Position numbers and translations under genes: made by a program. DNA of 64,000 bases from an uncultured Candidatus Micrarchaeota archaeon (GTDB taxonomy: Archaea > Micrarchaeota > Micrarchaeia > Anstonellales > Bilamarchaeaceae): NCBI GenBank assembly GCA_963791815.1, contig CAWBTT010000004.1:130215-194214 (forward strand). The letters are read 5' to 3'. Below, piece after piece: positions 4,481 through 44,808 of this stretch (within the stretch, counting starts at the first letter, position 1; each line of letters starts with the position of its first letter). Below the pieces are notes generated by a model. That model worked only from the letters and a program-made list of their open reading frames with translations. It did no database searches and was not told the DNA's origin.

Positions 4481-4506
4481 TTAGAAAAATAGAGAAAAAG
4501 AAAAAA

Positions 4507-6594
4507 CTAGGAGTACTCCCAGCAGTCAGGTTCAAGTATGCTGAATGGAAGCGAGCAGCTGTGCGATGAATCGCCATCAACATACGCGTATATGGTTCCA
4601 GACTGGTATGGCTCCCCGGTGATATTGTAGTATGTTCCTGAGTCTGTTCCTCCCGAGACCCCCACATAGCCTGAGGCCGACCAGGTCACGTTTGCACATG
4701 GCTGATCAGCGTCCGGCCCGCAGTTGATGTTGACCCATCCGAATGCACCAGGATAAGCGCTGAATGCCCCATCCCCGATGGTACACCATTCGCTTGAGCC
4801 ATCGTCGTCATCATCGTCATCAGAGCCGTTGTCATCGCCTCCGTCGCCTATTTCAATCGGCGCAAGTGCGATTGCTCCAAGAATCGGGTCGTCTGCAGGG
4901 TTGTTCCAGTAGGCATAGCCAAGGAGGTTCCCTGTGCTGTTTGCGCCTGCTGTGAATGTTGTACCGTCAGTGCTTGAGTTGCCTGTCGAGCCGAGAAGGC
5001 CGTCTATGTTGTCATAGTCAGCATCATCCGGAGTGGACGGGTTTCCATCTTCGAAACAGTTGAGTTCGAAATATTCAGACTCGCCAGTTTCCATCGAAGC
5101 GCTTGGCGGGACGAACTCGCACTCATAGTGAATTGGAGTTGTCACAGAAACATCCGAAAGGCAGTGCGCTATTCCTGACTCGTAGTTCATCGTCCCGGTT
5201 GTGCCTGGAGATGAGGTTGGATAGGCAATTGCGTGCGTATTGTCCCTCTCGATGAATCCGCCTGAGATTGCGTCCCAGTACCAGTTGTTTCCAACACATG
5301 ATATTGGGTCTCCTGCAAGGTCCTCGCAAGCGACCTCGAACTCCGCTACTTCGAGTGTTCCAAGGTTAAGTGAGCTTGGGTCGATTTCGCATGTGATTGC
5401 ACCAGTAAGCGAAACTGAGTCACTGCACGATGAGGCGCCGCCGCATGCAGATGAGACTGTTGAGGCTGAGAAAGATAGTACTGTTCCGCCGGATGCTCCG
5501 GGGTTTCTCTGGACAAGAACGTATAGGTCCTTGTTTCCTCCTGGACCGATAGATTCACCGAATCCGTTGGAGCTTGGACAGTCTGAAGGCAGGAATCCCA
5601 GAGTAGTACTGCAAAGTGAGACTGGAAGCGGGTCAACATCATAGTCAAGGTTTGAGCCTGTGACGCCATTGATGGTGATGTGGTCTCCGCTGTTATGCTC
5701 TCTGACGATGACCATCATTAGGTCTTCATCAATTAATGATTTTTTGGCAGTCACTGAAACCTCGTTGAAGTTGCAGCTTCCACCTGCATCCTGGACTGTA
5801 AGTGATATCGTGTCAGTAGCAATTGACGGGCCTATTAAAGGCTGATTATCTGTGAAGTAATATAGCCTGAACCAGAGTGAGCTTGTTTTCTGAAGCGGGT
5901 TCTTTGCCAAAGCAGCAATACAATCGACATCCTGGAGCCTTGTTTTTACCTGGTATGAGCCAGAAGAACTCACTGTGAATGATGGCGAGGGAATCGAAGG
6001 CATGGCCGAGCTTCCGCCAGGAACAACGCTACCTCCACCAAGGACCTGATAGGTTCCTTTACAGAACACATTGCCCTCACCTCTGCGGTTGGCAAAGGTT
6101 CCGCTCAAGTTATGATAAGTCACTGGCTGGTAATGAAACGTTGCCAAATCATCATACCTTGATGTGTCCTGTGTCAATAGATTGCCATCACCAAATGTAT
6201 TATGATCAGTGTACTGCGACGATGTAATCCATTTGATATTCCTGTTAGTATTTGTAGTTGAATAACTGATAAATGTCGGACATCCACCTGTCGGACACTC
6301 TGGGAATAAGGAATCGATATCCAAACTTGATACTGCCCATTTGGAGTTCACTGACGGGTTGACATTGAGCGTTGCGCCACTGCAGATGACATCCCCGGTC
6401 TGGAGATTACTCGGATTTCCGCTAACGACATCGCCTGAACTGGATGCGCTCAAAGTGAAGTCAGTAGTGAACTGCATGTTGGTGTTGAAGTGATAAGGCT
6501 CACCAACATAGTTCTGGAAATTTCCAGGGACACTAGTAGCGAACGCAAATGCGCCAAAAAAAATCAAGATTGAAAAGAGTGTTTTGTACATCAT
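4507..6594 (-). CDS. secreted Cys-rich Ser/Thr/Gly/Asn/Asp-rich surface protein (orphan)
   Basis: Canonical signal peptide MMYKTLFSILIFFGAFAFATS, preceded by GAGGT 4 nt upstream of ATG 6594. Repeated Cys-bracketed beta-like modules and a poly-Asp tract (DDDDDDD). The ORF opens further upstream and overlaps the stop of gene 6602..8578. Confidence 0.6.
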   Translation of the reverse strand: MMYKTLFSILIFFGAFAFATSVPGNFQNYVGEPYHFNTNMQFTTDFTLSASSSGDVVSGNPSNLQTGDVICSGATLNVNPSVNSKWAVSSLDIDSLFPECPTGGCPTFISYSTTNTNRNIKWITSSQYTDHNTFGDGNLLTQDTSRYDDLATFHYQPVTYHNLSGTFANRRGEGNVFCKGTYQVLGGGSVVPGGSSAMPSIPSPSFTVSSSGSYQVKTRLQDVDCIAALAKNPLQKTSSLWFRLYYFTDNQPLIGPSIATDTISLTVQDAGGSCNFNEVSVTAKKSLIDEDLMMVIVREHNSGDHITINGVTGSNLDYDVDPLPVSLCSTTLGFLPSDCPSSNGFGESIGPGGNKDLYVLVQRNPGASGGTVLSFSASTVSSACGGASSCSDSVSLTGAITCEIDPSSLNLGTLEVAEFEVACEDLAGDPISCVGNNWYWDAISGGFIERDNTHAIAYPTSSPGTTGTMNYESGIAHCLSDVSVTTPIHYECEFVPPSASMETGESEYFELNCFEDGNPSTPDDADYDNIDGLLGSTGNSSTDGTTFTAGANSTGNLLGYAYWNNPADDPILGAIALAPIEIGDGGDDNGSDDDDDDDGSSEWCTIGDGAFSAYPGAFGWVNINCGPDADQPCANVTWSASGYVGVSGGTDSGTYYNITGEPYQSGTIYAYVDGDSSHSCSLPFSILEPDCWEYS

Positions 6595-6601
6595 AAAAAC
6601 C

Positions 6602-8578
6602 TCATTCATCCTCAGTTCTTCTCGGGGTAGCCCTTCGAACTGAACCCTCGGTTGGCGATGGCCTGAAGAACTCTCCAATGTTGAACTGAAGGTTCAGTCC
6701 ACCGAATGGAGTTCCTGGAAGCCTGTCGACTTCCTCTCCGCCGACCTCGCCAAGGTATCCTCCGCGAAGGTCCACCTGGAACATTCTGCGGTATGAGTAG
6801 CCAAGTCCGAGATAGCCCTCAAATGTGTGGACCGTGTTCCCGAAGTTGTAATCATACCTAAGGCCAGGGCCCGCAAAGAAGCGGTGCTGGCCTTCCTCAC
6901 CAGCATAAACTGAAAGGTTGAGCGGTCTAATGTCCCCGCCTACCCTGTGCTGCCTGAGGAAGTATGAGTACTGTGGCGTGATTGTTGACTGGAGTCTTAC
7001 ACGGTTCCCTTCCATCCAGTTGCCCTCCATTGTTATGTAGGCAAGGGGATTCATGAGTACTCCGGTTGTGTCTCCTCCTGGTGCCTGCTCAAGCGTTGGA
7101 ACCACGCCAAGACCGACCCTTGAGAGCCTGACTATTCCGCGGTTTCCTTCTTGGCCTGGGAATCTGACTTCAACGCTTGTCAAACCAAGCATCGCACCGG
7201 AATCTCCGACTTCAAGCGTTTCGGTTGAGCCGTCTGTCATTGCAACTTGCCCTGACATGCTCCACTCCTGATGCGGAATCACTGTTGCGCCAATCACGAT
7301 TTCCATTGGTACTGCCCAGCTCTCTCCGCCGACACCTGTACCGATTGCAATTTCTGGCCTCAAACCAACTGAATGGCCGGTGCCAGAAAGCCTTGTCCTT
7401 CCGACGGTTCTAAGTTCCTGAGTCTGCGGGTCGACCTGAAGCTGCTGGAGCTGTCCGCTCATTGCAAGGTATTCATAGTACAATCCAAGTGAAGTCCAGA
7501 TGAACCTCGGCTCAAAGCCGCCATGCCGTGTTCCTCTCATATACTCCTGGAACGCCTGCATGTTCTGGTCGAACTCGTATCGGACCGTTACTCCTGCTCT
7601 GAAAATCGCGACTGCCCTCTGGTTAACTGAAATGACATAGAGGTTGTTCAGCGACTGGAAAATACTGTTTAGGGTTGACTCACCAGCAAGTGACTGAAGA
7701 CCGCCTGAGAGGTCTCCTGACTGCAATTTTCTCATCGCATCCTGGAACCCTGGCCTCTGCCAGATTTCTCTCTCAGATGGAATCGCGCTCAGCGCGTTGA
7801 AAAGCGCTGTCGCAGCCGTCCTCAGTGCTGCTGCATCATTTGGATGGTTTGCAAGTACTGCGTAACCATTTGCAATTGCGTTGACACCTGCCTGTGCTGC
7901 TGCCTGATCCCCAAAAATCGCGCTCATCTCAAGACCCGGAGTCGCGTTGATTGCAACGACTGATTCCTGGCTGCCACGGCTCAGCAGTGTAATGTTACCA
8001 AGGTCATGCATTGGCACTTCAATAATTGGAAGCGCGGTTGCCCTTGCCGCTTCGTCAACTTCCCTTGGGCCTGTCTGGGCGTCTGTTGAGACACCTTCAG
8101 TCACGCCAAGAAGAGCTGTAAGCATAGCAAGATGAGAAGCGAATTCGCTGTATCCCTCTTCGTCAGCTGATGCCCCTCTGCTAATCCTCTGGAGCATTGT
8201 CCTGAATGCGGTTGCATTGTCTCCAAGAGCTGCTGCATCCTGCGGCTGAAGTTCCTGAAGCCTCTGCAGTGAAGCAACAAGTGCCCTCTGGGCATAGCCA
8301 AGTGCGCCTTCGCGTCCTTCGCCTTCTCCAAGCCTCACGATTGCCTGATCATAAACCCTCCTCATAGGGTCGCTTTCAGCCGGCCGCCCACCAAGAAGAA
8401 CCTGGTGAATCTGCGCGATTCTGAGCGAGTTGTTCACCGAAGCTCTCGCTGTCGGTGCCCTTGACGGATGGGTAGGCCTGTCTGTCCTACCTGCAATAAT
8501 GTCCAAAAATCCTACTAACTGGTCTGCTGAATAGAGACCCTGTGATTCAGTCGGTGTTTCCCGTTGCGCCTGTGCCAT
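6602..8578 (-). CDS. orphan 658-aa protein: helical N-terminal half, beta-strand-rich porin-like C-terminal half
   Basis: Long ORF with GGGGTGA 6 nt upstream of the ATG. Only one Lys in 658 residues. The C-terminal ~300 aa are alternating amphipathic Gly/aromatic-rich strands ending in GGLNLQFNIGEFF. No family recognised. Confidence 0.6.
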   Translation of the reverse strand: MAQAQRETPTESQGLYSADQLVGFLDIIAGRTDRPTHPSRAPTARASVNNSLRIAQIHQVLLGGRPAESDPMRRVYDQAIVRLGEGEGREGALGYAQRALVASLQRLQELQPQDAAALGDNATAFRTMLQRISRGASADEEGYSEFASHLAMLTALLGVTEGVSTDAQTGPREVDEAARATALPIIEVPMHDLGNITLLSRGSQESVVAINATPGLEMSAIFGDQAAAQAGVNAIANGYAVLANHPNDAAALRTAATALFNALSAIPSEREIWQRPGFQDAMRKLQSGDLSGGLQSLAGESTLNSIFQSLNNLYVISVNQRAVAIFRAGVTVRYEFDQNMQAFQEYMRGTRHGGFEPRFIWTSLGLYYEYLAMSGQLQQLQVDPQTQELRTVGRTRLSGTGHSVGLRPEIAIGTGVGGESWAVPMEIVIGATVIPHQEWSMSGQVAMTDGSTETLEVGDSGAMLGLTSVEVRFPGQEGNRGIVRLSRVGLGVVPTLEQAPGGDTTGVLMNPLAYITMEGNWMEGNRVRLQSTITPQYSYFLRQHRVGGDIRPLNLSVYAGEEGQHRFFAGPGLRYDYNFGNTVHTFEGYLGLGYSYRRMFQVDLRGGYLGEVGGEEVDRLPGTPFGGLNLQFNIGEFFRPSPTEGSVRRATPRRTEDE

Positions 8579-8584
8579 TTTTAG

Positions 8585-8740
8585 TCACCCCAAAGTGAAT
8601 GCTAATGGTATAGGAGCCTCGAACTTTAAAATATGCTCCGGTGACGCAACAAGAGCCGCCAGACCAAATGCCGCTGCCGCGCAAACCTTCTTTGCCCGCG
8701 TGACAATCCCATTTCGTTTTTCATTGTGTCTGAGTTTCAC
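8585..8740 (-). CDS. candidate 51-aa membrane or secreted peptide
   Basis: GTG start 7 nt downstream of a perfect AGGAGGT. Translation: (M)KLRHNEKRNGIVTRAKKVCAAAAFGLAALVASPEHILKFEAPIPLAFTLG. The stop lies 6 nt before the ATG of gene 6602..8578. Below the ORF-track size cutoff. Confidence 0.35.
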   Translation of the reverse strand: MKLRHNEKRNGIVTRAKKVCAAAAFGLAALVASPEHILKFEAPIPLAFTLG

Positions 8741-8786
8741 TTGTCATACCTCCTTCTGTCCTTGAGCGAATTGCCCAAGCTGTTTT

Positions 8787-8806
8787 ACAGGGGAGAAATC
8801 CCCTGT
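8787..8806 (-). promoter_or_regulatory. perfect 8-bp stem / 4-nt loop hairpin in the intercistronic spacer
   Basis: acagggga-gaaa-tcccctgt lies 36 nt downstream of the stop of the 1335-aa gene and upstream of the small ORF. Function unknown. Confidence 0.3.
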
Positions 8807-8841
8807 TCCATCCACCCTTGTTTTAGTATAAAAAAGAAATA

Positions 8842-11800
8842 TTATCTGGAACGACGAGCCGCTGCTGTCGGTGAAGTGCTCCTTGGTGATACGATTACCA
8901 CCGGGGTGCTCTCTCCGACCACGTAGGTCCAGCTCTGGTTGTGATCTGTCGGAGCGCAGACTGATTCCATATTTCTGCGGAATCGTTCGTCACGTACAGG
9001 CTCGAATCCACTGGTGCCCTCTATCCTGAAAAGCACATCAGAAGGCCTAACACGCTGTCGACCGTCCATAACAGGAACCCACTCGCGTCCGCTTGTTGGG
9101 CTTTCTCCTGAAGGCCTAACACGAACGACTGCCCTGGGGATTACTGTCCCATCAGTCAAGGTTACATTGTTAATAACCTGGCCGATGTGAGAACGTCTCC
9201 TGGCTTCTATAGTACTTGTCGGGTCATACTGCGGATTCCTAAGATACTGGGTTATCTGCCCATCCTGGTCGCGCCTTCCGAGGTTCTGATATACGAACCA
9301 GTAGTAGGTCAGGTTGACTGTCCTCTGGTGCTGTCTCTGATACCTCCTGTGGAAGTCTGCGAAGCTCATTGTGTCTCCGTCCGCTTCACGGACCATGACC
9401 TGCTCTGCAGTGAATCTTACCCTGCTTGATGAACCCCTAGAGTATCTCTCCTGCTCAATGCTTGTCCTTGGAACGTAGAACGAAAGCTGCGCAAGGTCGT
9501 CTGTAAGCCTTCCCTGCTGCTCTGGGTCTGGGAATCGGCTGAGGATGCTATCATCAAGGCTTGCGATTGCGAGTTCTGCTGTTGCAATTGCCAATCTTGG
9601 GTTCATGCGCCCAGTGAAAAGGTCGCTGCCCCTGTCTCTGTGAAGCGCTCCGCGCAGTGTTGTAAGCAAACGCTCAGCCTCAACTGCCCGAGTTACATAC
9701 ATTACTCTTGGGTCGCGGCTTCTTGCAAGGTCCCTTCTTGCGAACCTTGTTCCGCTTGCGACTGCGATTTCACCGTCCAATCTTGTCCTGAGTTCTCCAA
9801 GCCTTGTATCTAATATAGATATAAGCTGGCCGTTTGCTGATGCAAGTGTCTCAGTTGGCGTTGCAGTTGCGTATCCCTGTGAAATCTGCCACATCCTGCT
9901 CCGGAGTGGTGCTGGATCAATTGTCCTAAGCCACTGCGGGGTCTGCCCATTGCCCCGGAGAATCGCAAGTCTGTAAAGCTCGATATAAAGGCTTCCATAC
10001 TGGGCAATCCTCATATCCTCCTGAGGATTGCTTCCAAGGTTGGCATCGCCGCCAGTATTTGGCTCAGGAACGATGTGCTGGTCAACTTCTGAAACAGAAG
10101 TTCTTCCCCTTCCTGTGCTTCCCCTGAGTATCGGATGTCCACCTCTCTGTATTGGTTCGGTGGGATTACGCCCGACTGAAGGCTGCAGTAATGCGAATGC
10201 CCTTCTTGATGCGGCGTCCCTTGACCCGTAAGCTGAAACCGCGAATCTGGGTGTGCCTCTTACTCCAACAAGAAGTCTGAGGAACCTCTCTTCTGCCAGT
10301 TGTGCGGCCTGGGCTCTTTCAGCATCAGTTGGATTGGCAATATCAGCAACAGTAACTTCCTGTGATGAAGGCGATGCGTATGCCTGGTTTGTCGCTATTG
10401 TTGCAGGCGATTCAAGAACCCTGAAAGTAGCAGGCGCAAGAGCGTTGATTGCTGCATCTGCTATTGCTCCTGATATGTTGGGGTGGAAACCTGAATCGAC
10501 TTGCGGTGATGAGAAGCACCATACGAATGCCTGCTGTGCCTGCTGAATCATTGCATCGGCACGGCCAAGCCTTTCCTGTGAAAGGTTTGCCCGAATTGAG
10601 CTGGTTGACCTCCAAAGCTGAGCCTCACGGATTGAAGCGAGACTGAGTGCCATGTAATATAATGTATCAGACATCTGCGGAACCTGCGCCACGTCCACAG
10701 TTCCCTGAGAAGCTGTAATCCAGGCATTTGCCGCCTGAATCATCGGGTCTGTTGCTGGAAGTCCTGAACCAGTTACAACTTCCTGCAGAGAACTCCTTGC
10801 AAGAGTGAGCCGGGCAGTGCCTTGAAGCTCTGCCTCACTAAGAGGCTGTGGCGGATATGCTGCCATATCAAGCGCGAGCCGGTACCTTGCATACTCGTAG
10901 CGGATGTTGGGCCTGAGCCTCCTCATTGTCGCCATTGTCCTTATTGAAGATGAAACTGCACTAGGCGCTGCCGGGGCGAGTCTTGAAACTTCCAGGTAAA
11001 GCTTGTGCAAAACATCCTCATACCTGAAATCCCGGTTTCTCATAAGGGCAGGCAAAAGTTCAGTTTCTGCACGGCGCACCTGGGCATCTGTAATTGGAAC
11101 CCCGGTATGCCTAAGATATGCCCTTGCCATACTGCGCCTTGTGCCTGCAGTATAAAGTCTGTAAGGAATGAAATCTGAATCAAGCAATGTTGAGACTGCA
11201 TTTGCATATGCGGTCCTAAGCTGGATTCTTCTTGGAGTATCAAGGCCTGCTATGTTCTGCCCCCTTGTGAATTCCCAAAGGTCCACAACTGCGCGGATGA
11301 CCTGTTCTTCTGATACAACTGACTCATAAAGTTCATTGACAAGATGGTATGAGAGAGAACCTCCCCCCTGCGCACCCTGAAGAACCTGCCTTGCACGCGT
11401 AAGCCTTTCTTCCATTGAGCTTCTGATGTCTTCCCTTCCGGTACGGACACGGCGAAGAACTCTTGTGCCATCAGCATTTCTTACAGGTACATAATCATAG
11501 GTTCCCCTGCTCTGGCCATCAGCCCTTGCCGCTGCCGCAACCTCTGCTCTTGTTGGAAGGTGACTTCCATCAATTGCCTGGAGAGATGCCTGCGCGATTG
11601 GAACAACAAACTGCTCGAGCCTCTGGCGCATGAGCTGCTGCTCCTGGGTAAATATTGTATTGGCTGCTGTGAGTTTTTCCCTGGCAAGAGTTTCGTTGCC
11701 CGCTCGAATAGCATCGCGTGCCTCACCAATTCTTGTAACCATGCGTGATGCTGGACTTTCACCAAGAAGAAGCGCATCGTTAAGCCTTCCGATAAGGTTG

Positions 11801-12849
11801 TTTGCAAGATTTCTCCTTTCCTGTGAAACTGACTGGTCTGCTGCGACCGCCTGAAGGTCTGTAAGTATTGAGGTTACCCTCTGCGAAAGAGGATGTGCCG
11901 CTGCAGTGTCAACACCAGGAATATCGGTCATCCTTGCCTGTGCTGCTCTTGTCTGGGACCGTGCGAGTTCACTTGAAACTACACGTTCTGCTGCTGTGAC
12001 AAGCCTTGCAAGCTGGCGTTCCCTTGGGCCGCCGGTCCTGTTAAGTTCTGCATTCAATCTGGTAAGAGCCTGCTCAGCGCTCCTTCGAACGCCAGCATTT
12101 CTCCCATAATTAGAAATTACTTCAAGATTGTCGCGAAGCTGTCCGTGCTGCGGCGCTGCTGCAACTGCGGGTTCTGGCTGCGCTTCAACTCTCGCTGGAA
12201 CGGTTTCCCTTGCTGATGGTCTTTCAGTAGGTGCTGCAACTGGGGCAGGTGCTACTGTTGGCTGCGGGGTTGCCTGCGCGAGAACTGGGCCGACAGACGA
12301 ATCAGCCGATGGGGTGCCGAGCGCTGCCATGACCCTCTGCTCAAGAAGTTGAAGGCCTGCTGCATCGAGTGCCGCATCCCTTCCTCTTCCGAGCCATGTA
12401 TTCATTGAGCGGAATTTGTCTCTGTCTGTTGAACCTGAAATTGGAATGACTGCCTGGCCGCCGTTTGATGGGCGAAGCCTCTGGTCAAGTTGAACCAAAG
12501 CAGCAAGAAGTCTTCTCACGTTCGCATCAGTATAAGTAACCTGCACTGGTGTGATTCCCGCTTCCTGCATCTGGGTGAATGTACCCCGAATTGCAGTGAA
12601 ATGAGTAGTGAGATTTTCATAAGCCTGTTGTACTGCCCTAACATCTACCCGTGACTCTTGCGCATGCGCCTCTTTCATAGCCGGTTCTCCCATAATAGCA
12701 CCCATAAAACTCGCGACAAAAATTGCGCGATGGAAGAACCTCTTAACGGCTCCCCCAGTACCTTTTCTGTTAGTAGAATTTAAAGGTTCTCTATGGCGGC
12801 GATTCTCGTCTTTCTGTTCAGCAGAATAATTTAGTTTTGGACCTCCCAT
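8842..12849 (-). CDS. orphan 1335-aa Ala/Arg/Gln/Leu-rich, predominantly helical protein with N-terminal hydrophobic anchor
   Basis: Uninterrupted 4-kb ORF. KRFFHRAIFVASFMGAIMGEPAMKEAHA resembles a signal or anchor segment. A Pro/Ala linker follows (TPQPTVAPAPVAAPTERP). Eight Lys in total, five of them in the first 59 residues. No family recognised. Confidence 0.6.
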   Translation of the reverse strand: MGGPKLNYSAEQKDENRRHREPLNSTNRKGTGGAVKRFFHRAIFVASFMGAIMGEPAMKEAHAQESRVDVRAVQQAYENLTTHFTAIRGTFTQMQEAGITPVQVTYTDANVRRLLAALVQLDQRLRPSNGGQAVIPISGSTDRDKFRSMNTWLGRGRDAALDAAGLQLLEQRVMAALGTPSADSSVGPVLAQATPQPTVAPAPVAAPTERPSARETVPARVEAQPEPAVAAAPQHGQLRDNLEVISNYGRNAGVRRSAEQALTRLNAELNRTGGPRERQLARLVTAAERVVSSELARSQTRAAQARMTDIPGVDTAAAHPLSQRVTSILTDLQAVAADQSVSQERRNLANNLIGRLNDALLLGESPASRMVTRIGEARDAIRAGNETLAREKLTAANTIFTQEQQLMRQRLEQFVVPIAQASLQAIDGSHLPTRAEVAAAARADGQSRGTYDYVPVRNADGTRVLRRVRTGREDIRSSMEERLTRARQVLQGAQGGGSLSYHLVNELYESVVSEEQVIRAVVDLWEFTRGQNIAGLDTPRRIQLRTAYANAVSTLLDSDFIPYRLYTAGTRRSMARAYLRHTGVPITDAQVRRAETELLPALMRNRDFRYEDVLHKLYLEVSRLAPAAPSAVSSSIRTMATMRRLRPNIRYEYARYRLALDMAAYPPQPLSEAELQGTARLTLARSSLQEVVTGSGLPATDPMIQAANAWITASQGTVDVAQVPQMSDTLYYMALSLASIREAQLWRSTSSIRANLSQERLGRADAMIQQAQQAFVWCFSSPQVDSGFHPNISGAIADAAINALAPATFRVLESPATIATNQAYASPSSQEVTVADIANPTDAERAQAAQLAEERFLRLLVGVRGTPRFAVSAYGSRDAASRRAFALLQPSVGRNPTEPIQRGGHPILRGSTGRGRTSVSEVDQHIVPEPNTGGDANLGSNPQEDMRIAQYGSLYIELYRLAILRGNGQTPQWLRTIDPAPLRSRMWQISQGYATATPTETLASANGQLISILDTRLGELRTRLDGEIAVASGTRFARRDLARSRDPRVMYVTRAVEAERLLTTLRGALHRDRGSDLFTGRMNPRLAIATAELAIASLDDSILSRFPDPEQQGRLTDDLAQLSFYVPRTSIEQERYSRGSSSRVRFTAEQVMVREADGDTMSFADFHRRYQRQHQRTVNLTYYWFVYQNLGRRDQDGQITQYLRNPQYDPTSTIEARRRSHIGQVINNVTLTDGTVIPRAVVRVRPSGESPTSGREWVPVMDGRQRVRPSDVLFRIEGTSGFEPVRDERFRRNMESVCAPTDHNQSWTYVVGESTPVVIVSPRSTSPTAAARRSR

Positions 12850-13089
12850 TTAGCCATCCTCATTTAACATTACTATATACTATTTGAAACAAATGATTTA
12901 AAAACCATTGTTTTCCACTTTTCACTATTTTTCGGATTGTTTTTATGACTGTTTCAAACACAAAAGAATGATTACTATAAAATGCCTAATAGTGTTTAAA
13001 AAAGGTGGCTTAAGAGCGGAATTGAAGGAATCCCAATAAAAAACGTATTTTACTACAGAATACAAGTGAGATTTTCTAAAAAATCAAAA

Positions 13090-16217: not shown

Positions 16218-16955
16218 ATGCGCAAAAGAAAGAGCCTGGCTTTCAAAAGAGAAAAGCCAACTATGACAAAGAATCTTTTTTTCTCAACACTTGCCTTTGC
16301 AGCGACAATAACTTCTTGCGCGCCGGCTGTCACAGCACTCCCAAGAAGAGAGATTCAAAGGGAAACCACGATTACTGAGACAATAAGAAGAACTGAAAGA
16401 GCATGCAGAGTTGACCCAAGGAACTGGCTTAGGAAAGGGGAGAGGCTCAGGGGAACTGTGTGCAGGGACGGAAGGATTTTCGCACTGACAGAGGGCAGCC
16501 TCCTGATAGGAAGAGAGGCAACCGGAGACTTCTTTTTCAGTGACATCACACTCGAATCAAGCCATTCCAGAACAGATATGGCAGGGATACTTCGGGCAGG
16601 CCTGGTCGATTGGACAGCCTCACAAGACACTGCATATTTCCTGACAAGAGACAGGATGCTTACGCCAATCCCTGTTGGAGATATGGGAGAGCGGCTTAAC
16701 TCATATGAGATTCCAGCTGCGTACCTAAGCGGAAAGATGGAATTCCACAACGACTTTCTTTTGATTGCAGGAGCAGGAAAGATAATGGCAGTATCGTTTG
16801 ACCCGCACCTGGATTCAAGAGAGATACCATTCAGATTAAGAACAAAAACCGCAGATTTTTTCCAGCGTGAAGGAAAACTGTTTTTCGGAAATGAAAGAGA
16901 AAGAATAGAAATAATTTTTGAGAGCTCAAGGCTCTCAGATATCCGGGTTCGCTAA
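16218..16955 (+). CDS. putative lipoprotein (orphan)
   Basis: MTKNLFFSTLAFAATITSC signal with lipobox-like Cys. atttataaatt lies about 30 nt upstream of ATG 16218. Confidence 0.5.
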   Translation: MRKRKSLAFKREKPTMTKNLFFSTLAFAATITSCAPAVTALPRREIQRETTITETIRRTERACRVDPRNWLRKGERLRGTVCRDGRIFALTEGSLLIGREATGDFFFSDITLESSHSRTDMAGILRAGLVDWTASQDTAYFLTRDRMLTPIPVGDMGERLNSYEIPAAYLSGKMEFHNDFLLIAGAGKIMAVSFDPHLDSREIPFRLRTKTADFFQREGKLFFGNERERIEIIFESSRLSDIRVR

Positions 16956-17614
16956 CCGCTTGAGGGGCGTCTTCTAATAGACGCTACAGTAATAAGGTCC
17001 TCAGGCCTCTGGCCACCCAGCATGGACCTTTCCATACGGTTGTACCTGCCCACATAAGTTCTTGCAAACTGCTGACGCTGTGCTGCATTCAACTGTCTTC
17101 GGGCGCCAGTAGATGAAACTGCATAAACTCTCATTCCAGAAGCGCCTTCTACAAGAGCTTGGCGAAGTTGGCCCAATCTTGAACGTGCAAGGCCGGCAGT
17201 TCCAGTTCCGCTTCTTGCAGGCAGTTCAGTTCTGCTTACAACCTCATATGTACGAGTTCCCATAGTTACGCGGTAGGCATATGTCCTCTCAGGAGTTCTT
17301 CTTGGAACAGTTCTAATGGTTGGGCTGCGCACAGGTCCGTGGAGAAGGGTAAGATCACTAAGAATTTCCCTCCTCTGTCTTGGACGTGCGCGTCCATTTG
17401 CCATCGTAGAGGCTATCCTATTCAAATCATTGACATCCAGCCAGCTCTGATTTACAGCAACATTCTGGCCCCTTGCGAGCCTCCCTGCTAAGCCCATGAT
17501 TGTTGTGGCCTGCTGCCGGGAATACCCCCCGCTAATAAGCTGCTGCTGAATCTGCATGTTGAACTGCTGCATTGTCATTCCAGGTTGTTGTGTCCTTCTT
17601 CTTGATTGCGCCAT
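16952..17614 (-). CDS. Arg/Gln-rich lysine-free orphan protein, paralogue of 17621..18115
   Basis: GAGGTGAT Shine-Dalgarno 6 nt upstream of the ATG. No Lys in 220 aa. The core YRVTMGTRTYEVVSRTELPARSG aligns with the upstream paralogue. Confidence 0.6.
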   Translation of the reverse strand: MAQSRRRTQQPGMTMQQFNMQIQQQLISGGYSRQQATTIMGLAGRLARGQNVAVNQSWLDVNDLNRIASTMANGRARPRQRREILSDLTLLHGPVRSPTIRTVPRRTPERTYAYRVTMGTRTYEVVSRTELPARSGTGTAGLARSRLGQLRQALVEGASGMRVYAVSSTGARRQLNAAQRQQFARTYVGRYNRMERSMLGGQRPEDLITVASIRRRPSSG

Positions 17615-17620
17615 ACGAAA

Positions 17621-18115
17621 TCACCTCGAAGATGCTACTCTCACTTCTCTGCTTGGAACATACTGTCCCCCGCGGAAGGTCCGGGAAAGATAATCATCCC
17701 TAAAAATGTCAAGCCTTGCGTTTGGCGCTCGTGCATTGAAACGTTCATGGTTTCCTGGTCCGCCAATCTGCTGAACATCAGCATGTACTACTGCACCCCC
17801 AGTCTCAACAAGCTGGTTGCCAACAAGAAGTTCGTGAAGCCTTTCCCTTCCGCCCCTTGCAGGAAGCCTTTCAGGAAGAGTAACGCGGTAAGCTCTATCT
17901 CCAACACTTACACGATAAACATGCTGTTCAATTCTCCTAGGAGTAGGTCGGGTAGTTGGGCGTACTGTTCCCGCGCGCCTTCCTGCCGCCGCGCCCTGCT
18001 GAAGAAGATCCAGAACGTTCCGCAACATGTTCTTGATTTCAACCATTTCCTGCTGAAGGGATTGAAGAGTAGGTGCCTGCGTCCTTTGCCGTGGTTTACG
18101 AGCAGCTTGTGCCAT
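17621..18115 (-). CDS. Arg-rich orphan protein, paralogue of 16952..17614
   Basis: Core YRVSVGDRAYRVTLPERLPARGG is identical to its neighbour at 13 of 23 positions. N-terminus is MAQAARKPRQRTQAP. Two Lys in 164 aa. Confidence 0.6.
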   Translation of the reverse strand: MAQAARKPRQRTQAPTLQSLQQEMVEIKNMLRNVLDLLQQGAAAGRRAGTVRPTTRPTPRRIEQHVYRVSVGDRAYRVTLPERLPARGGRERLHELLVGNQLVETGGAVVHADVQQIGGPGNHERFNARAPNARLDIFRDDYLSRTFRGGQYVPSREVRVASSR

Positions 18116-20889: not shown

Positions 20890-21029
20890 GCCGCAGTAGC
20901 TCAGTGGGAGAGCACTCCAGGTCCTTTTTTGTAATTAAAAAAAGAACCGGTGAAGCTGAAGTCTCACTGGGGGTTTAGTTCCCAGTTTCGGAAACGGAGG
21001 GGTCGCTAGTTCAAATCTGGCCTGCGGCA
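20890..21029 (+). tRNA. tRNA-Phe (GAA) with two introns: exons 20890..20918, 20955..20961, 20994..21029
   Basis: The joined exons give GCCGCAGTAGCTCAGTGGGAGAGCACTCC-GCTGAAG-ACGGAGGGGTCGCTAGTTCAAATCTGGCCTGCGGCA. This is a 72-nt cloverleaf with anticodon arm CTCCG/CTGAAGA/CGGAG. Both introns lie in BHB-type structures. Confidence 0.85.
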
Positions 21030-27967: not shown

Positions 27968-28067
27968 GGGCCCGTGGCTTAACCTGGATATAGCGAGTGG
28001 CTTCGGAAGCCTTCTCCAAATCGCTGGAGAAACCACTAGGTTAGGGGTTCGAATCCCCTCGGGCCCG
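27968..28067 (+). tRNA. tRNA-Arg (TCG) with canonical 25-nt intron (28007..28031)
   Basis: GGGCCCG...AGTGG CTTCGG | intron | A CCACT AGGTT AGGGGTTCGAATCCCCT CGGGCCC G. BHB: CTTC pairs with GGAG; the bulges are GG|A and AA|A. Confidence 0.9.
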
Positions 28068-44541: not shown

Positions 44542-44699
44542 TAGTAGTTGTTTTGTTCAGACGAGAAATATAGGAAATTGTTTGCAAAATACTAATAGAA
44601 CTAGTAAAATTAGTAGGTAATAGTAGTTGTTTTGTTCAGACGAGAAATATAGGAAATTGTTTGCAAAATACTAATAGAACTAGTAAAATTAGTAGGTAT
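44542..44699. repeat. perfect tandem direct repeat, 2 x 79 bp
   Basis: 44542-44619 is identical to 44621-44698 (78 of 78). Unit: tagtagttgttttgttcagacgagaaatataggaaattgtttgcaaaatactaatagaactagtaaaattagtaggta. The second copy ends exactly at the tRNA-Val 3' end. Confidence 0.9.
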
Positions 44700-44808
44700 G
44701 GGCCCGCCCAGGATCGAACTGGGGATCTTTCGCGGTCTTAAAGAAGAATAAGTATCAACGAATTCTTCCGATGTAAGGCGAACGTCTTAACCACTCGACT
44801 ACAGGCCC
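44699..44808 (-). tRNA. tRNA-Val (TAC) with canonical 37-nt intron (44735..44771)
   Basis: Reverse complement is GGGCCTGTAGTCGAGTGGTTAAGACGTTCGC CTTACA | intron | C GCGAA AGATC CCCAGTTCGATCCTGGG CGGGCCC A. BHB: CTTA pairs with TAAG; the outer helix has 7 Watson-Crick pairs plus one G-U pair. Confidence 0.9.

Follow-up and report, generated by a model that had tools for sequence, protein, structure and literature searches.

We describe here a protein of 658 residues, encoded in a 64,000-nucleotide stretch of DNA (the window; GenBank assembly GCA_963791815.1, contig CAWBTT010000004.1, positions 130,215 to 194,214 of the forward strand) from an uncultured Candidatus Micrarchaeota archaeon, whose C-terminal half is predicted to fold as a porin-like meander of 13 antiparallel β-strands. 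The open reading frame (ORF), found by ORF calling at positions 6602 to 8578 on the minus strand (P0001), is taken here as the founding member of a Micrarchaeota-specific family. Modelling suggests that this is a new porin-like family, in which closure of the barrel and insertion into a membrane are putative. Transmembrane β-barrels are regarded as a hallmark of diderm bacteria and of organelles descended from them, and their use by archaea is not known; Ihomp1, an outer membrane protein of the archaeon Ignicoccus, is helical. A porin-like fold is unexpected in an archaeon. Below, L numbers denote related loci, P numbers protein representatives and G000 the source genome, which is 1.47 Mb in size and 88% complete.

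The β-domain covers residues 313–633 (6680 to 7642, minus strand). A preliminary description of the DNA, made from the sequence alone, had pointed to positions 6662 to 7591, corresponding to residues of about 330–639, as a series of Gly- and aromatic-rich stretches in which hydrophobic and polar residues alternate, and this is borne out by the composition, the periodicity and the hydropathy of the family. Glycine makes up 14.6% and Phe, Tyr and Trp together 11.1% of residues 306–640, as against 8.9% and 3.9% of residues 1–305, and the period-2 (β) hydrophobic moment, compared with that of shuffled sequences, is at +2.9 standard deviations for the C-terminal half and −1.7 for the N-terminal half. 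Inside the strands the family-averaged hydropathy alternates between about +3 and −2, so that the pattern is a conserved one and did not arise by chance in a single sequence.

With an alignment of 33 sequences, consisting of the close clusters, a second subfamily and the translations of related loci, AlphaFold2 (AF2) gave a model with a mean predicted local distance difference test score (pLDDT) of 77.5, in which 13 long strands joined by short turns run up and down, each beside its next neighbour. The predicted strands S1 to S7 comprise residues 313–335, 358–382, 389–416, 423–446, 452–472, 483–498 and 504–523, and S8 to S13 residues 527–540, 543–559, 565–578, 583–596, 600–613 and 623–633. The first five are very long (21–28 residues). 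In blocks of 10 residues the pLDDT of the β-domain is mostly 65–92, with one block at 57; in an earlier AF2 run with 11 sequences only the helical N-terminal domain was confident and the C-terminal half had a pLDDT of 35–45. All the strand peptides quoted in the preliminary description are present, each lying inside or across a predicted strand, and the chain ends as it said, with the closing strand PFGGLNLQFN, then IGEFF and then a 20-residue tail of Arg, Pro and Glu.

The pairing of the strands was also examined by covariation, separately from AF2, using mean-field direct coupling analysis (DCA) and a pseudo-likelihood model on 121 family sequences with an effective number (Neff) of about 108. 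The representatives from an exhaustive profile search (see below) were used for DCA and for the tabulations and did not enter the AF2 alignment. With both models the top couplings are pairs within adjacent hairpins, the sums of the paired residue numbers (i+j) from DCA being 693, 772, 839, 898, 1003, 1050, 1082, 1123, 1161, 1195 and 1232. Of the 12 pairs of neighbouring strands, 11 have a register defined by DCA, S5–S6 being weak, and adjacent strand pairs are enriched 1.6- to 5.8-fold amongst the top 400 couplings. An antiparallel meander of amphipathic strands, with every strand paired to the next one, is characteristic of outer-membrane β-barrels (OMBBs), and the modelled domain has this arrangement.

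When the strands were laid on the register lattice and the family-mean Kyte–Doolittle hydropathy calculated for each face, the most hydrophobic alternating stripe fell on a common face in 11 of the 13 strands, with values of +1.5 to +2.95 on this belt face and of −0.2 to −2.1 on the opposite one. The belt spans about 7–10 residues along each strand, with Tyr and Trp at its edges, and its centre rises by about 0.86 residues per strand, a slant that is expected of tilted barrel strands. The lower halves of S1–S5 are polar on both faces. The belt pattern is compatible with either face being turned outwards, and we infer that the hydrophobic face is the outer one.

A search of the model with Foldseek points to the same class of fold. 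Matches in the PDB with an appreciable probability (0.5–0.84) are mostly transmembrane β-barrels, namely BtuB (0.84), OmpG (0.82), BrkA (0.75) and FadL (0.69), followed by OprC, FhaC, SlpA and PopA, and those in BFVD are DUF481, opacity-protein, autotransporter and porin barrels. The soluble β-solenoid or sandwich that the preliminary description had entertained as the alternative is unlikely, none being named amongst the best 50 Foldseek matches. Neither were β-pore-forming toxins named in the best 50 matches of either library, and the oligomeric type of β-pore toxin (haemolysin, aerolysin, MACPF/CDC) does not fit a protein that has 13 strands in one chain.

Several observations weigh against a closed, membrane-inserted barrel. 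The predicted number of strands is odd, and between S1 and S13, where the barrel would close, the enrichment of coupled pairs (2.2-fold, four pairs) lacks significance and the best ladder is at the level of noise. Two of the 12 registers used in the belt analysis are second-best DCA peaks picked for consistency of the faces, and an alternating hydrophobic face is equally expected of a soluble sheet with a buried core. Foldseek gave nothing at E ≤ 0.001 against either the PDB or BFVD; the best target-normalised TM-score is 0.42, to OmpG, and the root-mean-square deviations of the matches are 10–25 Å. When 56 diverse members were compared with Pfam (E ≤ 1), the matches were scattered and single with no outer membrane protein (OMP) family shared between them (the lone match of OMP type was Phenol_MetA_deg, E 0.0048, in one member), and alignment of the family profile with E. 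coli OmpG by hhalign gave a probability of 0.2%. The 658-residue protein lacks a C-terminal β-signal, in which the end of the last strand is the end of the protein and is F, W or Y, and its ORF has no N-terminal signal peptide. A search of the source genome, 88% complete, for Omp85/BamA (PF01103) gave no match, the control being positive in seven diderm genomes, and cultivated Micrarchaeota have one membrane and an S-layer (10.1101/2021.04.28.441871). Of the β-barrel reading in the preliminary description, the porin-like part is favoured by the meander, the registers and the Foldseek class, while the closed barrel with an external belt is putative. We consider the chances about evenly balanced that the domain is a porin-like barrel which belongs to a surface complex and works beyond the cytoplasmic membrane.

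The family is large within a narrow lineage. A word-indexed search returned 11 close clusters and two further homologue searches gave only close clusters, while the exhaustive profile search of 1.84 billion representatives yielded 106 clusters at 50% identity, of which 60 had E-values below 1e-30; a metagenome scan for the family found one locus. Homologues with named records all come from metagenome-assembled genomes (MAGs) of Candidatus Micrarchaeota/Micrarchaeia. Amongst the GTDB genomes of the phylum, the protein family is present in 25 of the 27 sampled from the genus of the window and in five genomes from three other genera of the same taxonomic family, and was not found in about 325 searched genomes of other Micrarchaeota families. 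Its range is a single family of Micrarchaeota, in one genus of which almost every genome has it. The source genome has a single copy, hmmsearch with a profile of the β-domain giving no paralogue besides the target. In MAGs of the same genus there are also stand-alone β-domain paralogues of 340–430 residues, located away from the cluster described below; these are not bacterial contamination as they adjoin the genes for CDC48, archaeal PheRS-β and acetyl-CoA synthetase. Neither the 658-residue protein nor its two large neighbours nor the micro-ORF upstream has a match in Pfam or NCBIfam, profile searches of the PDB with the family gave none, and a literature search found no paper describing the family. 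A kinship with Ricin-B lectins was judged spurious: P0097 and P0105 are lectin-peptidase proteins of bacterial type, and RicinB in Pfam matches none of the members.

The ends of the relatives differ from those of the 658-residue protein. Amongst relatives with at most six residues past the last strand, 13 of 24 have F, W, Y or L as the C-terminal residue (P0084, for example, ends ...GALSLGLTF); such an ending, which resembles that of bacterial OMPs, is frequent in the stand-alone β-domain paralogues. Longer members have PxxWF after the last strand and a tail motif (A/T)VP[KR][KR]. In the 658-residue protein the tail comprises residues 634–658 (6605 to 6679, minus strand, from the family tabulation), in which IGEFF takes the place of PxxWF and the charged part bears the conserved (A/T)(V/T)P[KR][KR]xE; residues 641–658 have a pLDDT below 50. 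The N-terminal domain, residues of about 14–309 (7652 to 8539, minus strand), is mainly helical in the AF2 model, with helices in residues 18–160 and 216–309, a disordered linker (165–186) and a short hairpin (196–209). Its pLDDT is mostly 78–93 over residues 21–160 in both AF2 models and lower past the linker, and a search for a structural match to it found none.

The preliminary description had also stated that the protein lacks a signal peptide. This is true of the ORF itself but is incomplete, since relatives carry signal peptides of the AxA type and a segment homologous to them lies upstream. N-termini resembling signal peptides occur in at least 32 relatives, and in many of these an AxA-Q cleavage site is present. 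In L003, L006, L008, L010 and L011 there are two tandem paralogues, of which only the first bears a signal peptide; the second is the orthologue of the 658-residue protein. Immediately upstream of the 658-residue ORF is a 51-codon gene (8585 to 8740, minus strand), with a GTG start 7 nt after GGAGGT, which encodes KLRHNEKRNG...AAAAFGLAALVASPEHILKFEAPIPLAFTLG and resembles the N-termini of the signal-bearing relatives; its product has a basic N-terminus and a hydrophobic helix followed by ...ASPEHILKFEAPIPLAFTLG. The TGA of this gene lies within a Shine–Dalgarno-like GGTGA about 6–7 nt before the ATG of the 658-residue ORF. The corresponding segment is fused to the MAQAQ start in L007, L009, L013 and the L002/L016 contig, whereas the micro-ORF of the window, L004, L005 and L023 ends in frame with the main ORF, at a TGA two codons short of its ATG. 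Read-through of this stop codon, which would join the upstream signal-like ORF to the 658-residue protein, was considered and rejected: in L015, L022, L030, L031 and L032 the micro-ORF (...PIPLAFT) is out of the frame of the main ORF and has other stops, so that the 51-codon ORF is a separate gene and not a read-through leader. Judged from these sequences it is an independent, conserved gene for a small membrane protein, apparently coupled translationally to the main ORF through GGTGA. Export through Tat by hitch-hiking was likewise rejected; the source genome encodes TatC, but the twin arginine is conserved neither in the micro-protein nor in the signal peptides.

Some further features of this region were observed. 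The micro-proteins of the window, L004, L005, L015, L022, L023 and L030–L032 end with the consensus ...ASP(E/G)(H/Q)(I/F)(I/L)xxxxPIPLAFT. A comparison of the window with L004 shows that the DNA of the final ~85 nt of the micro-ORF and of the initial ~20 nt of the main ORF is nearly identical, with about five differences (counted by eye) in about 100 nt, although identity between the main proteins is only 67%; this suggests that the RNA or the ribosome-binding region is under selection. Five proteins of the source genome that start with MAQ[AST] are nearly free of lysine (0–1.2% K and 8–16% R), compared with 6–10% K in its other five MAQ- proteins; they are encoded at C2:217889–218392 (+) and C4:44962–45795 (+), and in the window at 16952–17614 (−), 17621–18115 (−) and 6602–8578 (−). 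The combination of this start with a low lysine content may mark a shared N-terminal motif or a class of proteins.

The gene is flanked by two others with which it is constantly associated. Upstream (8842 to 12849, minus strand) is the gene for a 1335-residue protein, whose N-terminus has a signal or anchor (..KRFFHRAIFVASFMGAIMG..EAHAQE) and which accompanies the family constantly, as seen from synteny in 12 loci, and downstream (4507 to 6609, minus strand) is that for a protein of about 700 residues, rich in Cys, Ser, Thr and Gly and again a constant neighbour, which has a classical signal peptide (MNEVFMMYKTLFSILIFFGAFAFA). The latter gene overlaps the 658-residue ORF, the TGA of the ORF being at 6602–6604 and the ATG of the next gene at 6607–6609. 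The conserved order is the giant (about 1250–1390 residues), sometimes a paralogue, the target and the Cys-rich protein, and the cluster adjoins a gene for a β-CASP RNase. P0072 (1717 residues) combines a part like the 1335-residue neighbour with one like residues 217–553 of the target, a fusion that, at the level of sequence, is a Rosetta-stone hint that giant and target interact; P0113 (1597 residues) has a target-like part only, as seen with BLAST. The four-gene block at 4500–12850 has a G+C content of 49–52% in 2-kb windows, compared with about 43–46% in its flanks; as its position is syntenic across the genus it is not a recent island. The window is archaeal, containing PurP and intron-containing tRNAs. 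Rfam matches to tRNA of 100–140 nt lie at 44699–44808, 27968–28067 and 20890–21029, and their having been missed by ARAGORN suggests intron-containing archaeal tRNAs.

Taken as a porin-like protein, the product would be a two-domain component of the envelope, with a helical N-terminal domain joined to a C-terminal barrel or nearly closed barrel-like sheet. The β-domain would be located outside the cytoplasmic membrane with its belt buried in a lipid or lipid-like layer, which might be the outer envelope of the cell itself or, with lower probability, a partner's membrane, and the long polar ends of strands 1–5 and the helical domain would project into aqueous space. It would act together with the 1335-residue giant and the Cys-rich protein of ~700 residues, and probably also with the 51-residue membrane micro-protein. 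Closure of the barrel, export of the signal-less copy and activity as a channel are all steps that we infer. It seems somewhat unlikely, though worth considering, that these are genuine lipid-embedded barrels made without Omp85/BAM, in which case there would be either an outer lipid layer, reviving the two-membrane view of ARMAN cells, or delivery into the membrane of a partner, within a surface complex that includes the giant and the Cys-rich protein. On this view the strand-like PIPLAFT tail of the 51-residue micro-protein could act in trans, as a 14th strand or by anchoring to the membrane. The earlier two-membrane hypothesis has been reviewed by Gfrerer et al. (10.1101/2021.04.28.441871).

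An unlikely alternative, with some points in its favour, is that the protein is soluble, either secreted or pseudo-periplasmic, and that its large curved sheet, which may be closed, encloses a hydrophobic cavity for lipids or other hydrophobic molecules, the protein acting as a lipid shuttle and not as a pore. The lowest E-values given by Foldseek (4.7e-3 to 1.8e-2) are to vitellogenin, lipovitellin and microsomal triglyceride transfer protein (MTP), which also combine helical domains with lipid-binding sheets, but these matches have TM-scores of 0.05–0.11 and probabilities of at most 0.15, are meaningless at that level and were treated as noise. The matches do include PopA, a porin-like protein that traps lipid (PMC12228718), and the one-sided hydrophobic face would suit an interior cavity equally well. 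DPANN archaea are often dependent on a partner; the source genome, however, has genes for GGGP synthase and CarS, so that lipids would not obviously have to be acquired from elsewhere, and the aromatic-ended last strand seen in the paralogues is a trait of OMPs and not of lipid transfer proteins.

It is also improbable that the giant helical protein, the Cys-rich protein and the 658-residue protein together build a proteinaceous envelope specific to this lineage, a lattice or sheath resembling an S-layer, with the target as a structural subunit and its belt taken up by contacts between the proteins of an oligomer instead of by lipid. Such a role would accord with the occurrence of the cluster in 25 of 27 genomes of the genus, with three large proteins that look co-transcribed and are secreted themselves or have secreted relatives, and with the presence in the Foldseek matches of SlpA from D. 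radiodurans, a β-barrel protein of the S-layer. S_layer_N (PF05123) has no match in the 658-residue protein, in the source genome or in any of the 11 same-genus genomes searched, and has matches in six genomes from sister genera of the same taxonomic family. This complementary distribution is weak, however, because PF05123 is insensitive in the phylum (two of 201 genomes over the cut-off), and both families occur in one genus, g13, though in different genomes. The scattered stand-alone paralogues are also better suited to diversification of a porin-like protein. Finally, that the protein is cytoplasmic, with the lack of a signal peptide to be taken at face value, and its porin-like appearance an artefact of AF2 on a shallow alignment is very unlikely: 34 family sequences including the 658-residue ORF start at the conserved MAQxQ without a signal peptide, the second tandem paralogues have no upstream ORF for one either and the AF2 alignment held just 33 sequences, but homologues with the same domain bear cleavable signal peptides, fused before MAQAQ in L007, L009 and L013, the AF2-independent DCA reproduces the strand pairings and both flanking genes encode secreted proteins.

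If the porin-like domain is inserted in a membrane, it would bear on the make-up of the envelope of uncultivated DPANN cells, on BAM-free insertion of β-barrels and on the contact between symbiont and partner. Even if it is soluble, this is a large, uncharacterised and lineage-specific envelope system with clear experimental handles, in which a family of more than 100 clusters at 50% identity sits within a conserved surface-protein operon.

Comparison with known systems places the protein closest to bacterial barrels in predicted fold and apart from them in sequence and setting. Within its own phylum, SLP_Mh of Micrarchaeota (PF05123-like; 10.1101/2021.04.28.441871) is also a large surface protein with an ambiguous N-terminal signal or anchor, from an unrelated family, and amongst archaea a possible distal porin-like relative in Altiarchaeales is mentioned in the paper on PopA (PMC12228718). 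With the large lipid transfer proteins (vitellogenin, lipovitellin and MTP) it shares a helical domain and large amphipathic sheets, though the order of the domains differs and there is no sequence similarity. The combination in one chain of a helical N-terminal domain and a C-terminal barrel is also found in BcsC and in the OmpM/SlpA tethered porins of Deinococcus-Thermus and Negativicutes. SlpA complexes (8agd, 7zgx) and BcsC (9b8a) are amongst the Foldseek matches, with TM-scores of 0.1–0.2 that make this an architectural analogy only; the SLH domain of OmpM/SlpA and the TPR of BcsC were not detected in the 658-residue protein, and its barrel would be far smaller than the 30-strand one of SlpA. 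From the bacterial OMBBs (OmpG, FadL, autotransporter and TonB-dependent barrels) it differs in having no sequence or profile similarity, 13 strands in place of an even number, an S1–S5 region with strands of 21–28 residues, a charged tail of 25 residues and no signal peptide, and in belonging to an archaeal host with no known outer membrane and in which Omp85 was not found. It resembles them in the predicted Gly- and aromatic-rich amphipathic meander with short turns and a one-sided belt, and in having relatives that carry signal peptides of the Sec type and whose last strand has F, W, Y or L at its end, and bacterial OMBBs are the fold class that Foldseek matches best.

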